Part shown: positions 5,684 through 61,906 of the stretch, piece after piece
Layout: each line of letters begins with the position of its first letter
Numbering within the stretch: position 1 is the first letter of the stretch
Origin: Comamonadaceae bacterium
GTDB lineage: Bacteria; Pseudomonadota; Gammaproteobacteria; Burkholderiales; Burkholderiaceae_C
NCBI GenBank assembly: GCA_013297925.1
Contig: JAAFJC010000009.1
Span: 997-64,996 of the forward strand
DNA: 64,000 nt
Direction of reading: 5' to 3'
The notes under the pieces: model-generated
The model's input: the letters and a program-made list of their open reading frames with translations, nothing else
What the model was told of the DNA's origin: nothing
The model's database searches: none
Translations under genes and position numbers: made by a program

Positions 5684-6646
5684 ATGCACGATGCACCTTT
5701 AAGGTGGCAGCACTTCAAACTTGACATGATTCACACCTACGATGACCGATTTTCCCCCGTCGCGCAAGATGCAGGATCGGTCATCCGTCTTTGCACGGGC
5801 GCAAAGTGGAGTGAAGGGCCTGTGTGGATGCATGAGGATCAATCGCTGCTGTGGAGCGATATTCCCAACAACAGAATACTCCGCTGGAACAAGCAAGACG
5901 GCATGACGGTTTGGCGAGGCAACGCCGAATTCACCAATGGGCACACACGCGAAGCAGACGGCTCACTGCTGCATTGCTCACACGGCTTGCGAGCGATTGT
6001 GCGCACGAGGTTTAGCAAAGATCTCTCTGAGCAACGCGATGAGATCGTGGTGGATCGCTACCAAGGCAGGCGCTTGAATTCGCCCAATGATGTGGTGGTG
6101 AAATCCGATGGCACGATTTGGTTTACCGATCCGCCTTACGGCATCGTATCTAACTATGAAGGCTACAAAGCAGACAGTGAATTGGGCAATTGCTATGTGT
6201 TTCGCTTCGATCCGGTGAGCAAAAGCCTGCGCATCGTGACAGATTTGATCGAAGAGCCTAATGGCTTGGCTTTCTCGCCCGATGAATCCACGCTCTATAT
6301 CTCAGACACCTCCGCGGCCTTGAAGAAAGATGGCGGCGGCAACCATCACATCATGGCCTTTGATGTGGTGGGTGGGCAAGACCTTGCCACGCCTCGCCTC
6401 TTTGCGACGATTTCTCCCGGCCTCTCCGACGGTTTCCGCGTAGATCAGCACGGCTTCCTCTACACCAGCTGCGAAGAAGGTGTGCAGGTGTATCACCCTG
6501 ATGGCACCAAGATGGCGTTGATCGACGTGCCGGAGAAAGTGGGCAATCTCACCTTCGGCGGCATCTCGCGCAACGAGCTCTACATCTGCGCCAGCCAATC
6601 GCTTTACTGCATCCGCCTCAATACGAAGGGGCTGCAAACCCCATGA
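5684..6646 (+). CDS. SMP-30/gluconolactonase/LRE-family lactonase
   Basis: Contains WSEGPVW, LLWSDIPNNRILRW, RLNSPNDVVVKSDGTIWFTDP and EPNGLAFSPDE. The internal ATG was chosen because the track ORF start overlaps the EamA gene. Confidence 0.85.
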   Translation: MHDAPLRWQHFKLDMIHTYDDRFSPVAQDAGSVIRLCTGAKWSEGPVWMHEDQSLLWSDIPNNRILRWNKQDGMTVWRGNAEFTNGHTREADGSLLHCSHGLRAIVRTRFSKDLSEQRDEIVVDRYQGRRLNSPNDVVVKSDGTIWFTDPPYGIVSNYEGYKADSELGNCYVFRFDPVSKSLRIVTDLIEEPNGLAFSPDESTLYISDTSAALKKDGGGNHHIMAFDVVGGQDLATPRLFATISPGLSDGFRVDQHGFLYTSCEEGVQVYHPDGTKMALIDVPEKVGNLTFGGISRNELYICASQSLYCIRLNTKGLQTP

Positions 6647-7371
6647 GTATCAGCGCCGCAATCCAATGGCTGCTCAGCCCCATCAGCGGCGCGAGCACAC
6701 ATCATTTGGAAGAATGGGTGGTGTGGCATGCGCGCTTGATGGTGCTGGCGTGGGCGATTTTGTTGCCGCTGGGCGTGATCGCAGCGCGCTACTACAAAGT
6801 CACGCGTAATCAAGATTGGCCCCGCGTGGTGGACAACCGCGCTTGGTGGCATGCCCATCGCGGCCTGCAATACAGCGGCGTGGTTTTGATGTTGATCGGC
6901 GTTTATCTGGCCTGGCAGCAAAGTGCCTCCACAACCCTCGCTGCGCAGGTGCATGGCTATTTGGGCTGGGGCATCACAGCGATGGGCATCCTGCAAATCT
7001 TGAGCGCTTGGTTTCGCGGCAGCAAAGGCGGCCCCACTGAGCCCGAGATGCGCGGCGACCATTACGATATGACGCCTCACCGCTTGGCCTTTGAATGGCT
7101 TCACAAAACCTGTGGTTGGTTCGCCGTTGGCGCTGCTGTGATCACGATTGCCCTGGGGCTTTGGATTGCCGATGCCCCGCGCTGGATGCCTTTGGTGTTG
7201 GCCGTCTGGTGGATCGGCTTGATCGCCTGGGCGATTTATTTAGAGCGCTCAGGGCGCGCTATCGACACTTACCAAGCCATCTGGGGGCCTGATTTAAAAC
7301 ACCCCGGCAATCAGCGCTCGCATGTCGGCTGGCGAATGCTTCGCCCCGGTAGCGTTCAGGAGAAAGTATGA
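6643..7371 (+). CDS. Integral membrane protein, cytochrome b561-like (His-rich 5-6 TM)
   Basis: The ATGA overlap with the lactonase stop suggests translational coupling. Conserved His residues sit in the TM helices (WHARL, WWHAHRGLQ, VHGYLGW). The family call rests on recollection only. Confidence 0.5.
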   Translation: MSISAAIQWLLSPISGASTHHLEEWVVWHARLMVLAWAILLPLGVIAARYYKVTRNQDWPRVVDNRAWWHAHRGLQYSGVVLMLIGVYLAWQQSASTTLAAQVHGYLGWGITAMGILQILSAWFRGSKGGPTEPEMRGDHYDMTPHRLAFEWLHKTCGWFAVGAAVITIALGLWIADAPRWMPLVLAVWWIGLIAWAIYLERSGRAIDTYQAIWGPDLKHPGNQRSHVGWRMLRPGSVQEKV

Positions 7372-29841: not shown

Positions 29842-30065
29842 GAGAAGCTCCTGAAAATGTGGGAATGAATCCCGGGTTGTTGATGGACTCAATTCTTCTC
29901 AAAACGCCCGGAAGCAACAATGCCAGCGCAGGGCGGAAAACTTCCCATTCGCTGCCAAAAACCTCCGAGCGCGGAAGATTTCTTCCGGGGCTTGGCTGTA
30001 GTTATTGGGGCGGCGATAAAGGGTTAAACAACCCTTTTCGTATGTTCTTTGTTTGGCTAAAACGC

Positions 30066-30191
30066 TCGCCAGAGCACCCGGGGCGGATGGCTCCATGTCC
30101 TCCGGCGGTATCAAGGTTTGGTTTGTCTTCGGTAAGCTGAATGCGCCGCCTCCCCCTTTACTTACGCCATCCGCCCCGGGTGCTCTGGCGA
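30066..30191 (-). repeat. Family II long-hairpin element, copy U1 (sense strand inferred as minus)
   Basis: A perfect 26-bp stem (30066-30091 with 30166-30191) encloses, in minus-strand sense: GUAAGUAAAGGGGGA, inner stem GGCGG/CCGCC around a 37-nt loop, then GGAGGACAUGGA. Confidence 0.7.
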
Positions 30192-30234
30192 TCTTGTCGC
30201 AAATCGAGCATGTGGGTGCGTTAGCGATGCCCAT

Positions 30235-30361
30235 GCCCGTGTGATGTGGCTTTGTGTCTGGCGCAAGTAAAGGGGGAGGCGGGAGATAAGCGCACCGGAG
30301 GAGACGATGCCAATGCCCGCCGGAGGACATGGAGCCAGACGCAAAGCCACATTACACGGGC
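30235..30361 (+). repeat. Family II long-hairpin element, copy U2
   Basis: A 28-bp stem (30235-30262 with 30334-30361) has 2 non-Watson-Crick pairs, both G-U only on the plus strand. It encloses GCAAGUAAAGGGGGA, inner stem GGCGGG/CCCGCC around a 32-nt loop, then GGAGGACAUGGA. Confidence 0.7.
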
Positions 30362-30436
30362 TGCCTCCCCAAGCCATGCACAGAGCGCAACAGCTCACAC
30401 CTTCATTGCCGCATCAATAGCTTTCATAATGGCGGC

Positions 30437-31186
30437 ATGTCTACCCAACCAAAAATCGCCTTGATCGAAGATGATCAGCCCACCAGCGCCCAGCTTGCTG
30501 CGTGGATTCGCGCCGCGCGGCCTGATATTCAGATTGACACTTGGTTTAACCGCGACGATGCAGAAGCCGCGATAACGAGAGAGCGCTACGATGTGGTGTT
30601 GCTCGATATCGAGCTTGGTCATGAGAGAAATGCTGGCGTGGCGCTGATCAACACGATCAACAAGCTGCGCCCTGGCACGCCGGTGCTCGTGATCTCGGCG
30701 ATGCCCGCTGCGATTTACCGCAGCATCATGAAGGCGCTGGATGCTTGGGATTATTTGCAGAAGACGACCTTTGAAGAACGCGATTTCATTGAGACTTTTC
30801 TAGAAATACTGCGTGCAGCCCGCAATTCTCCTGCGCAAGCAGCTACGAATTCAGTAGCGCCTGCAAAGAGCGCAGACGATCTGAGCCTCGATCCCCTGTG
30901 GCAGCGCACGCCTACTTGGCGCGGCCAGCGCGTGAATTTGCCGCTCACGGCGCAGCGCATCTTGGCCACGTTACATCAGAGAGCTGGAGAAGTGGTGAGC
31001 TATGAAGAGCTGTTTGATGTGGTGAAAAGCGGGCGCAGCCGAGACAATGTGCGCAAGCATGTGAGCACGATTCGTGAGGCGTTCAAAGAGGTGGACGAAG
31101 ATTTCGCAGGCATTGAGAACATCCCGATGCGCGGCTTTCGCTGGATGCACGCAAAACCAATTCGCCCTCACGGTGGTTCGGCATGA
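30437..31186 (+). CDS. OmpR/PhoB-type response regulator (REC + winged helix)
   Basis: Contains KIALIEDDQ, VVLLDIEL and a C-terminal trans_reg_C-like region LTAQRILATL..RKHVSTIREAF. An in-frame upstream ATG at 30329 lies inside element U2, so the start is uncertain. Confidence 0.8.
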   Translation: MSTQPKIALIEDDQPTSAQLAAWIRAARPDIQIDTWFNRDDAEAAITRERYDVVLLDIELGHERNAGVALINTINKLRPGTPVLVISAMPAAIYRSIMKALDAWDYLQKTTFEERDFIETFLEILRAARNSPAQAATNSVAPAKSADDLSLDPLWQRTPTWRGQRVNLPLTAQRILATLHQRAGEVVSYEELFDVVKSGRSRDNVRKHVSTIREAFKEVDEDFAGIENIPMRGFRWMHAKPIRPHGGSA

Positions 31187-50318: not shown

Positions 50319-50450
50319 TTTCAGTTGGTGCTCGGAAGGTTTCGTTCGGCGAGAGCGGCTGCGAGTGCGAGGCCTCTTGGTTACTCTGAAAATTTTTACC
50401 CGTTGATAGTCACTCAGCACGCACTATGTTTGTGAATGATGACTGTGATT

Positions 50451-50527
50451 GGGTTATCTCACGCAGCAAAATAAAGGGGGAATGCGGGCAAAGCCCGCAG
50501 GAGGACATTTGCGGAGTGGGATAGCCC
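50451..50527 (+). repeat. Family II long-hairpin element, compact copy U3
   Basis: A 20-position outer stem (50451-50470 with 50508-50527): 16 Watson-Crick pairs, 2 U-G pairs on the plus strand, and 2 mismatches. It encloses AUAAAGGGGGAAU, the hairpin GCGGGC-aaa-GCCCGC, then AGGAGGACA. Confidence 0.65.
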
Positions 50528-50570
50528 AAGCGCAGGCGGCATTCACAGACCGCAAGCGCTGCCAGCTAGC

Positions 50571-54067: not shown

Positions 54068-54565
54068 TTAGAACGGGATATCGTCATCCATATCATCAAA
54101 GCCACTGCCTTGCTTGGCCTTAGGTGCTGCGCCAGCTGGAGCAGCGGCTGGGCGCGCTGCTGGCGGGCGAGAAGCTGGAGCAGGTGCGCGTGAATAACCG
54201 CCACCGCCTTCGTCTGGCGAACCCGCGCCTTGGCGGCTTCCCAGGAGCTGCATTTCTGTAGCGATGATGTCCACTGTGTTGCGCTCGATGCCGTCTTTAT
54301 CGGTGTATTTGCCGTACTTCAAGCGGCCTTCCACGTAAAGCGGCGCGCCTTTTTTCACATACTCGCCCACGATCTCGGCCAGGCGGTCAAAGAACTGCAC
54401 ACGATGCCATTGGGTGTCTTCAATCGTCTCACCGGAGGTTTTGTCTTTGCGTTTGCTGGTGGTGGCGATCGAGATATTGGCCACCGCGCCGCCGGAGGGC
54501 ATGTAGCGGATTTCGGGATCGCGCCCGCAGTTGCCCATGAGAATGACTTTGTTGACGGAGGCCAT
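54068..54565 (-). CDS. ssb: Single-stranded DNA-binding protein
   Basis: OB fold beginning [12 protein letters not shown], a Gly/Pro-rich linker, and an acidic tip ending DDDIPF. Confidence 0.95.
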
Positions 54566-54623
54566 GTGTGTGTTCCTTGTGTTTCAGTGCTTAAGTTAAG
54601 TGGTTTGCCCAAAGGCCTTGCAA

Positions 54624-57268: not shown

Positions 57269-57290
57269 TTTTTATCATCTTGCATCTCAA

Positions 57291-57350
57291 TCCGTTCGCC
57301 CTGAGCTTGTCGAAGGGTGGTGAGGCTTCGACAAGCTCAGCCCGAACGGA
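57291..57350. repeat. REP-type palindrome of the CCCTGAGCTTGTCGAAGG class
   Basis: tccgttcgccctgagcttgtcgaag-N10-cttcgacaagctcagcccgaacgga (23 of 25 positions pair). It produces the classic spurious peptide LRQAQPERN in the track ORF at 57317. Confidence 0.8.
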
Positions 57351-57386
57351 ATGTGTATCGAGTCACTAGCCTTGTCGTGTCACCCG

Positions 57387-61000: not shown

Positions 61001-61042
61001 CGCCGGCATAGATACTGCGCGAGCAGCTATTGAAAACATAGC
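61001..61042 (+). repeat. Family I repeat, copy C (forward orientation), 3' of livF
   Basis: cgccggcatagatactgcgcgagcagctattgaaaacatagc. Confidence 0.8.
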
Positions 61043-61049
61043 GAAAACT

Positions 61050-61124
61050 GGGGTCAGATCACATTTCAGGACACTCCACTAACCGGCGTGCAACACAGCC
61101 CAGACGAAAATGTGCTCTGACCCC
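61050..61124. repeat. Inverted repeat (17 nt arms, 1 mismatch, 41-nt loop), MITE- or terminator-like
   Basis: ggggtcagatcacattt ... aaatgtgctctgacccc, followed by AATTTTT. Confidence 0.6.
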
Positions 61125-61434
61125 AATTTTTGCGGCGCACGCCAATCAGTTGATTCATGCCAGCACAGTTAGCACGCAACCCGTTGCACACCACCTTTTG
61201 CACCTGCGGCCTACCATCGGGCTTTGCCTCAGAAAGTTTTTTGAAAATACACGCGATAAAGGCCTCGGTGAATTAAAGATGTCTCCGCGCGCCTTCCAAA
61301 AAATTTCCGATCCAAACACCCAATGGTCTCCGCCTGCGAACAAAATAGGGCCAGTATCTACAAGACGTTTCTCGGGTTAGTATAGATTTCTCTCTGTCAG
61401 AATCGGGGCACATTTTTCTAAATGGAGTCCAACA

Positions 61435-61758: not shown

Positions 61759-61906
61759 AGCCACGGCTGGGCGGTTAGCAGCCTGGCGATTTTGGCAGCG
61801 CAGGGTTGGGGAACGCGAGTGCGTTCCCTCGTTATTTCAAGCGACGGGTGTCGCGTCATTCCCGAGCTGACTAATGAGCCAGGATGATGACCGCCCAGCC
61901 GTGGCT
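61759..61906. other. Unassigned 148-nt structured element (multi-hairpin closed by a perfect 17-bp stem)
   Basis: agccacggctgggcggt (61759-61775) pairs with accgcccagccgtggct (61890-61906). Inner pairings are cctggc/gccagg, the hairpin gggaacgc-gagt-gcgttccc, and the hairpin gcgac-gggt-gtcgc. Confidence 0.5.

Follow-up and report, generated by a model that had tools for sequence, protein, structure and literature searches.

Why do two long hairpins stand back to back in front of a two-component operon, and do they belong to it? The pair lies in a 64,000-nucleotide stretch of contig JAAFJC010000009.1 from a Comamonadaceae bacterium (this whole stretch is called the window below), in a gap of 595 bp between a Band_7/SPFH gene and a response regulator gene. 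An initial annotation had proposed that the hairpins form a selected single-stranded structure, and had argued against a transposon-type repeat. We found that both hairpins lie in a 413-bp element that has terminal inverted repeats and a TA duplication and is missing at orthologous loci. We are highly confident that positions 30005-30417 represent an insertion of a TA-duplicating MITE (miniature inverted-repeat transposable element). The ends of this element are those of an ordinary transposon; what is unusual is a conserved, covarying internal module, present on both strands and common to several element families. Overall, the locus is likely a TA-duplicating MITE, of what would be a new superfamily, that carries a structured module, most probably in the form of read-through RNA.

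The 413-bp insertion

The limits of the element were defined by comparison of filled and empty sites. Ten orthologous loci (L045-L051, L062-L064), whose regulators have 86-95% protein identity to that of the window (95% being the highest of the ten), keep the order of Band_7, regulator and kinase genes with a spacer of about 180 bp. The element is absent from all ten, and the covariance model described below finds no module there. In the alignment, the extra 413 bp of the window fall between GGTTA and GCTTTCATAATG; the empty sites have one TA, and the insertion, which occupies a TTAG target 17 bp upstream of the regulator start codon, has one at each end. When hairpin pairs from different loci were aligned, conservation ran past the hairpins and ended in inverted repeats, and such terminal-repeat pairs are 410-415 bp apart in the window and in nine other loci. 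The layout is a quasi-palindrome composed of terminal repeat, hairpin A, a 41-nt spacer, hairpin B and terminal repeat. Most other copies also have TA on both ends, in the target context (C/T)TA(G/A); both TA flanks are intact in 7 of 11 listed elements, with the targets CTAG (three), TTAG (two, window included) and CTAA (two). The features of the window are as follows.

30003-30004: left target TA; the empty orthologous sites read GGTTA followed by GCTT, with a single TA
30005-30417: whole non-autonomous element (MITE), 413 bp; this block is exactly missing in L045, L047, L048 and L050
30005-30029, plus strand: left terminal inverted repeat TTGGGGCGGCGATAAAGGGTTAAAC, 25 nt, with 4 differences from the family consensus TTGATGCGGCAATAAAGGGTTGAAC
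30018-30037: small subterminal hairpin AAAGGGTT-AAAC-AACCCTTT, then T, with the look of a weak terminator (read from sequence)
30064-30193, sense on the minus strand: hairpin module A (U1), covariance model R1 129.9 bits, 26-bp perfect stem
30092-30103, minus strand: 3' loop module of A, GGAGGACATGGA (sequence match)
30151-30165, minus strand: 5' loop module of A, GTAAGTAAAGGGGGA (sequence match)
30194-30234: central spacer, 41 nt, which the 5' ends of modules A and B both face
30235-30361, sense on the plus strand: hairpin module B (U2), R1 117.1 bits, 28-bp stem
30263-30277, plus strand: 5' loop module of B, GCAAGTAAAGGGGGA (sequence match)
30322-30333, plus strand: 3' loop module of B, GGAGGACATGGA (sequence match)
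30393-30417, minus strand: right terminal inverted repeat, 25 nt, reading inward TTGATGCGGCAATGAAGGTGTGAGC
30418-30419: right target TA, from comparison of empty sites and flanks
50440-50538, plus strand: third, single module; diverged family, short apical hairpin, R1 40 bits

The hairpin pair itself was accurately described in the initial annotation. U1 and U2 are in opposite orientation with 43 nt between them. U1 has a perfect 26-bp stem (arms 30066-30091 and 30166-30191, 26 nt, 100% complementary) and U2 a 28-bp stem (arms 30235-30262 and 30334-30361, 28 nt, 93% complementary), the exceptions in U2 being one G·T and one T·G on the plus strand; as G·U, both pairs occur in the sense strand only, which is the one with the purine motifs. 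Near-identity of the enclosed modules was also confirmed: AAGTAAAGGGGGAGGCGG and CCGCCGGAGGACATGGAGCC each have exactly two perfect matches, on opposite strands, against a chance expectation of about 0.01-0.03. The statement that the two stems share no sequence was too strong, as the loop-side ends of both are TGGC/GCCA and the family consensus of both begins with GCCC/GGGC; the stems differ, yet they are not wholly unrelated. In the family-wide register, both units have 28-bp stems (30064-30193 and 30235-30361). Folding z-scores were -7 to -9 for all four strands relative to shuffled sequence. The subterminal hairpin at 30018-30037 has a counterpart on the A side of other copies; it was not reported by the terminator scan.

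The element has the attributes of a MITE: small size, no transposase gene, terminal inverted repeats, target duplication, dispersed copies, and filled versus empty sites. No reverse transcriptase, recombinase or transposase was called within 10 kb on either side, as had been noted before. Only short, non-conserved open reading frames (ORFs) cross the 413 bp, and the putative peptides are altered by compensatory changes in the stems. IS630-family elements duplicate TA, and IS630 prefers CTAG (PMC2170065), while RUP is a MITE moved by an IS630-type transposase (PMC2229807). Mobilization in trans is presumably the work of a DDE transposase that duplicates TA, of the IS630/Tc1-mariner kind. A full-length parent insertion sequence (IS) would be expected to have TTGATGCGGCAATAAAGGG at its ends. 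Neither the element nor its terminal repeat occurred in the plasmid collection, and the viral collection likewise lacked the element; in a metagenome scan, the terminal repeat had six matches, all without modules or a second repeat, which we regard as chance.

Insertion in this genome is recent, and its position before the two-component operon is incidental. Relatives keep the operon without the element and copies elsewhere adjoin unrelated genes, so the position is accidental, and the link to the operon that had been suggested is not upheld. Database versions of the regulator with 289-292 aa were considered as a sign of the same insertion and ruled out, since those loci are empty.

The junction with the regulator has several features of its own. 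An ORF at 30329-31186 starts with an ATG in the 3' loop of module B and continues in frame into the regulator gene (285 aa versus 249 aa), and a gene caller could report it as a spurious N-terminal extension of the regulator. The sequence TTCATAATGGCGGCATG at 30420-30439, right before the regulator start codon, is conserved in all relatives; its counterpart in the empty sites L045, L047, L048 and L050 is at about 2480-2500. Within it, CATAAT resembles a -10 box. As just 7 nt separate it from the ATG, the mRNA may have a very short leader or none. The element went in just upstream, replacing whatever had occupied the -35 position.

Copies of the module and probable selection on one folded strand

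Distribution of the module was assessed by scanning one genome per species for GTAAAGGGGGA-N30-60-GGAGGACATGG, which yielded 43 loci. Thirty-nine were true copies, many at contig ends, from 13 Comamonadaceae genomes (Variovorax, Ramlibacter, Brachymonas, Paracidovorax); the other four, from unrelated taxa and with no flanking stem, were chance matches. Covariance model R1, built from 48 units, found 74 units in the fetched loci, including some that lacked the exact search pattern. These units form 31 head-to-head pairs, in which a minus-strand unit is followed by a plus-strand unit with 5' ends facing, and no tail-to-tail pair; most unpaired module matches are at contig ends. Spacers measure 40-42 nt in 22 A/B-family pairs. 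The A-type (U1) and B-type (U2) stems recur across genomes with conserved flanks, and the loop modules are also enclosed by six or more other stem sequences, unrelated to these, which all pair. The initial emphasis on helices that differ in sequence needs qualification in that, within each stem type, stems and flanks are conserved across genomes.

A module comprises four parts, namely a closing helix (28 bp), an internal loop that is asymmetric and purine-rich, an inner helix of 6-8 bp and a variable tip, and its sense strand runs 5' to 3' from the element centre to the nearer end. E-family units have Watson-Crick pairs (GCGAA with UUCGC) where the outer "loop" would be, which implies that the true core is 5'-GUAAAGGNGGAG opposite 3'-GGN'GGACA.

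Several lines of evidence indicate that this fold is under selection in a single strand, as initially proposed. Among the 74 units, 28 of 28 outer-stem pairs have changed on both sides, and 93% of cells are paired, a fraction that falls to 64% in shuffled controls and to 34-41% when partners are slid. Only the purine-motif strand has wobble pairs: non-Watson-Crick stem cells on that strand comprise 55 G·T/T·G (41 distinct events) versus 4 A·C/C·A. Because modules A and B are on opposite DNA strands of the same locus, this asymmetry cannot be explained by a mutation bias of replication or transcription. The sense fold is also more stable than the antisense fold in 55 of 71 units (mean difference -4.2 kcal/mol; p = 2e-8). 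In addition, two positions covary across the internal loop. At loop pair X, bracketed in A[A/G]GUAAAGG and GGACA[U/C]GG, A-U was found in 69 units, G-C in 4 and mixed combinations in none; the four G-C units are at three separate loci (L003, L029, L026), and we take the switch to have occurred in at least three lineages. At loop pair Y, the middle base of GG[N]GGA on the 5' versus the 3' strand, G/A is common and A/G (5), C/G (2) and G/U (1) also occur, with one exception, A/A.

Conservation within the element follows the module and not the ends. Across 17 complete elements, mean pairwise identity was 0.95-0.99 for the loop modules, 0.92-1.0 for the inner helices and 0.85-0.91 for the outer arms, whereas values were lower for tips (0.68-0.72), spacer (0.63) and terminal repeats (0.56-0.67). 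Loop modules are therefore the most conserved part and exceed the stems, the opposite of the conserved stems and variable loops that the initial annotation had associated with an ordinary repeat. L033 and L038 are orthologous copies, with flanks and a degenerate terminal repeat in common. As judged by eye, their spacers and tips are substantially diverged, whereas the loop modules are near-identical, with a single change at the variable N of G-N-AAG, and changes between the stems are compensatory. The copy L031 of Variovorax sp. PCZ-1 (JAHCDN010000003.1, hairpins 6460-6758, element about 6405-6817) has lost 36 nt including the left terminal repeat, yet its hairpins are intact, with 28/28 and 27/28 Watson-Crick pairs; in the set L019/L031/L035, all four single stem substitutions produce G·U when read on the sense strand. 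Taken together, the asymmetry of wobble pairs, non-canonical covariation in the loop and persistence in an immobile copy argue for a function of the folded single strand in resident copies, and selection on the hairpins in this form is very probable.

The module at 50440-50538 (sense fold -48.2 kcal/mol versus antisense -34.4) illustrates how pairs decay. It belongs to a second family, and its target was a TTAG made up by the overlap of two stop codons, those of convergent NicX-like and SnoaL-like genes. The same locus is empty in Variovorax sp. PCZ-1, where the genes have no spacer and their stop codons overlap in TTAG (L059, about 2568); it holds a full head-to-head pair in L058 (2576-2854), one unit plus spacer in the window, and only the other unit in L060 (2575-2679). 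These four states indicate that single units are deletion derivatives of pairs, and the window's third module is the remnant of a pair. A match at 54489 with three mismatches was examined as a further copy and rejected: it has no comparable stem, only a 22-nt repeat of 73% complementarity, is missed by the model, and adjoins an apparent start codon (CAT at 54565-54567, minus strand), so that by eye it seems to be coding.

Several copies have irregular forms. L018 (666-907) is a 242-bp A/B hybrid with one hairpin, whose A-type left arm and B-type right arm cannot pair as an outer stem, and L023 (3569-3748) is an A-left/B-right hybrid at a contig end where only one terminal repeat is present; both are probably recombinants of the two modules or assembly chimeras. 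In a diverged Ramlibacter family (L007, L030, L044, L003), paired modules show about 83% mutual complementarity over 143 nt; the spacers measure 102-122 nt, and conservation continues into the outer flanks for at least 50 nt. Copies were also found at the very ends of contigs from metagenome-assembled genomes (MAGs), including L003, L028, L040, L041, L042 and others; L040 is a 4.3-kb contig with element copies at both ends.

Other inverted repeats of the window appear to be separate. One at 57288-57353 (GTTCGCCCTGAGCTTGTCGAAGG...), with 28-nt arms and a 10-nt loop, is unrelated to the element; it resembles a common proteobacterial REP-like intergenic hairpin. Two long inverted repeats at 61041-61133 and 61759-61906, in an AT-richer stretch near the end of the window, have arms of 26 nt at 88% in one and 46 nt at 78% in the other. 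Neither is detected by the module model, and they may correspond to the other hairpin family of the initial annotation.

Alternative readings of the hairpins

The initial remark that the motif was not recognizable as a riboswitch or small-RNA class was borne out in Rfam 15, with no match at gathering score in the window or in seven related loci. At E <= 10, Rfam gave only generic long-hairpin matches to plant microRNA models, with 31 bits versus a threshold of 168, and MITE reviews and full-text literature searches yielded no description of the element. Individual readings of the motif were tried and discarded. A sigma-54 promoter in the spacer was suggested by TTGGCAC, which resembles a -24 box; the -12 GC is not conserved across copies. 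The AUG of GGAGGACAUGG was rejected as a start codon because the Shine-Dalgarno-like stretch is only 1-2 nt away, because its U to C change (giving ACG) goes with A to G on the other strand, which marks a base pair, and because downstream reading frames are not conserved. The 11-nt receptor of GNRA tetraloops (CCUAAG/UAUGG) does not fit in register, and some copies have C or G in place of its U. A lead at most is the likeness of the core, with UAA opposite GAC, to the UAA/GAN motif, for which a literature search gave nothing citable.

We considered what else might account for these data. Free-standing small-RNA genes, or a cis-regulatory leader of the two-component operon, would fit the conserved structure, the end of the element 17 nt before the regulator start codon and the shared sense of module B and regulator; such a role is barely credible for hairpins that are missing from the same operon in ten orthologous loci, adjoin unrelated genes elsewhere and have no promoter-like site in the spacer. 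Giant relatives of REP/BIME/REPIN repeats, moved as single-stranded DNA by an HUH tyrosine transposase (RAYT) that recognizes a hairpin in one strand, are a very unlikely alternative in spite of a real likeness. As in BIMEs, the units are palindromic, alternate in orientation and form composite repeats (PMC2817692), and strand-specific pairing is what one would expect if one DNA strand were the substrate. The units, however, measure 100-130 nt and not 20-40 nt, flanks at the stem base have no conserved GTAG, loops are more conserved than arms (the reverse of REPINs), and terminal inverted repeats with TA duplicated at YTAR sites, as seen in the A/B family, are not a product of single-strand HUH transposition. 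The element accordingly does not qualify as a member of this group.

It is also improbable, to a similar degree, that the hairpins are functionless palindromes kept perfect by template-switch correction and gene conversion, with loops conserved through recent bursts of copying. Stem types are indeed conserved across genomes along with their flanks, the hybrids L018 and L023 show that modules recombine with each other, and the orthologues L033 and L038 carry different stem subtypes that are both present elsewhere. But strand-symmetric processes do not predict 55 G·T versus 4 A·C, and neither the switch from A-U to G-C across the loop nor invariant non-palindromic loops beside diverged spacers, seen both in L033/L038 and family-wide, would be expected. 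Selection on single-stranded DNA, as the transferred strand in transposition or a lagging-strand template bound by transposase or a host protein, deserves more weight and is a serious alternative, though we still regard it as unlikely. The nearer terminus is where the sense strand of each module has its 3' end, scans revealed no internal promoter, and DNA hairpins tolerate G·T. On the other hand, transposition of the IS630/Tc1 type uses double-stranded ends and no folded intermediate (PMC2170065), and L031 keeps its hairpins without one terminal repeat. The two covarying cross-strand loop positions are suggestive, not decisive, in the same direction. Non-canonical purine-purine pairs with cross-strand covariation are typical of structured RNA.

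Of the strands that could be selected, we lean towards RNA, and since no internal promoter was seen, towards RNA made by read-through transcription. Each half of the element carries one module, with its sense directed outward from the centre, and any transcript crossing the element would then contain exactly one sense module, whichever way the element had inserted. Such orientation-independent provision of one module per strand would explain the invariable paired design. The module may serve as a platform for protein binding or RNase processing that changes stability or translation of the flanking mRNA. This is a best guess by analogy with cleavage of Correia elements by RNase III and the orientation-dependent effect of ERIC on mRNA stability (PMC2229807, PMC10969869), and any particular function of the module is doubtful. 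More tentatively, the module could represent a new structured RNA class that is the selected payload of several TA-targeting MITE families of Comamonadaceae, acting independently of orientation on read-through transcripts by binding protein, by RNase processing or as a catalyst.

Several observations weigh against a read-through RNA carried by an IS630-like MITE. Promoter scans found no sigma-70-like promoter inside four copies. The whole element, taken as one long RNA, prefers pairing of module A with module B over two local hairpins, so the local hairpins would depend on folding during transcription. G·T is the least harmful mismatch in single-stranded DNA as well, and what looks like purifying selection might be produced by gene conversion between copies. 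Because exact loop modules in one unit were required for a locus to be collected, loops seem more conserved than they are; partner units and terminal repeats are free of this selection, and A/B-family partner units found only by the model deviate from the module consensus at 1-2 of 27 positions. As for the ends, plasmids, the metagenome scan and the 10 kb on either side of the element yielded no transposase or autonomous element whose terminal repeats match. The IS630-like assignment therefore draws on two things, the duplication of the target and its sequence, and YTAR is a target of some IS5-type elements too. For the Ramlibacter and other diverged families, an attempt to define terminal repeats or a target duplication gave none.

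Relation to known elements and significance

The closest likeness in the ends is to MITEs of the IS630 type, RUP of Streptococcus pneumoniae and Nezha, which are also non-coding, have terminal inverted repeats, insert at and duplicate TA and are present in many intergenic copies, and whose transcripts are predicted to fold into long stem-loops (PMC2229807, PMC2170065). The present element is about four times longer than RUP (413 bp versus about 107 bp). Unlike in RUP and Nezha, the long hairpins lie in its interior, and the terminal repeats, its least conserved part, do not form them; it was found without a matching IS, and its copies are restricted to Comamonadaceae. Correia/NEMIS elements of Neisseria likewise have TA termini and terminal repeats of about 25 bp, are co-transcribed with neighbour genes and form RNA hairpins that are cleaved by RNase III (PMC2229807, PMC10969869). 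In Correia, however, the hairpin consists of the terminal repeats themselves; a conserved motif in an internal loop is lacking, as is a module pair on opposite strands. ERIC/IRU of enterobacteria is an imperfect palindrome of roughly 127 bp, about the size of one module, and acts at the mRNA level in an orientation-dependent manner (PMC2229807). Whereas ERIC is a single palindrome whose effect is set by insertion orientation, the element described here has one module per strand, and its sequence is unrelated to Correia, ERIC and RUP. To our knowledge, no loop covariation has been described for ERIC.

Stem-loops with functionally important internal loops inside a transposable element are also known from the bridge RNA of IS110 and the omega RNA of IS200/IS605. 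These RNAs adjoin the recombinase or nuclease gene that they serve, and their loops vary with the target. The element cannot be assigned to either group, as no recombinase or TnpB/IscB gene lies within 10 kb and its loops are invariant across families while the stems vary.

For the host and for genome analysis, two consequences are apparent. The element displaces the native upstream region of the ChvI-like regulator by 415 bp and may alter expression of this regulator, and as a repeat it breaks metagenome (MAG) assemblies, with many copies at contig ends. MITEs are common, are usually defined by their ends and are treated as inert hairpins; in this family, the ends decay, and an internal loop motif and its helices are constrained across genera. 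Strand-specific wobble and loop covariation normally support a new RNA family, and the module is thus a candidate for a new RNA motif. The presence of one module on each strand looks like a means to act on host transcripts regardless of the orientation of insertion.

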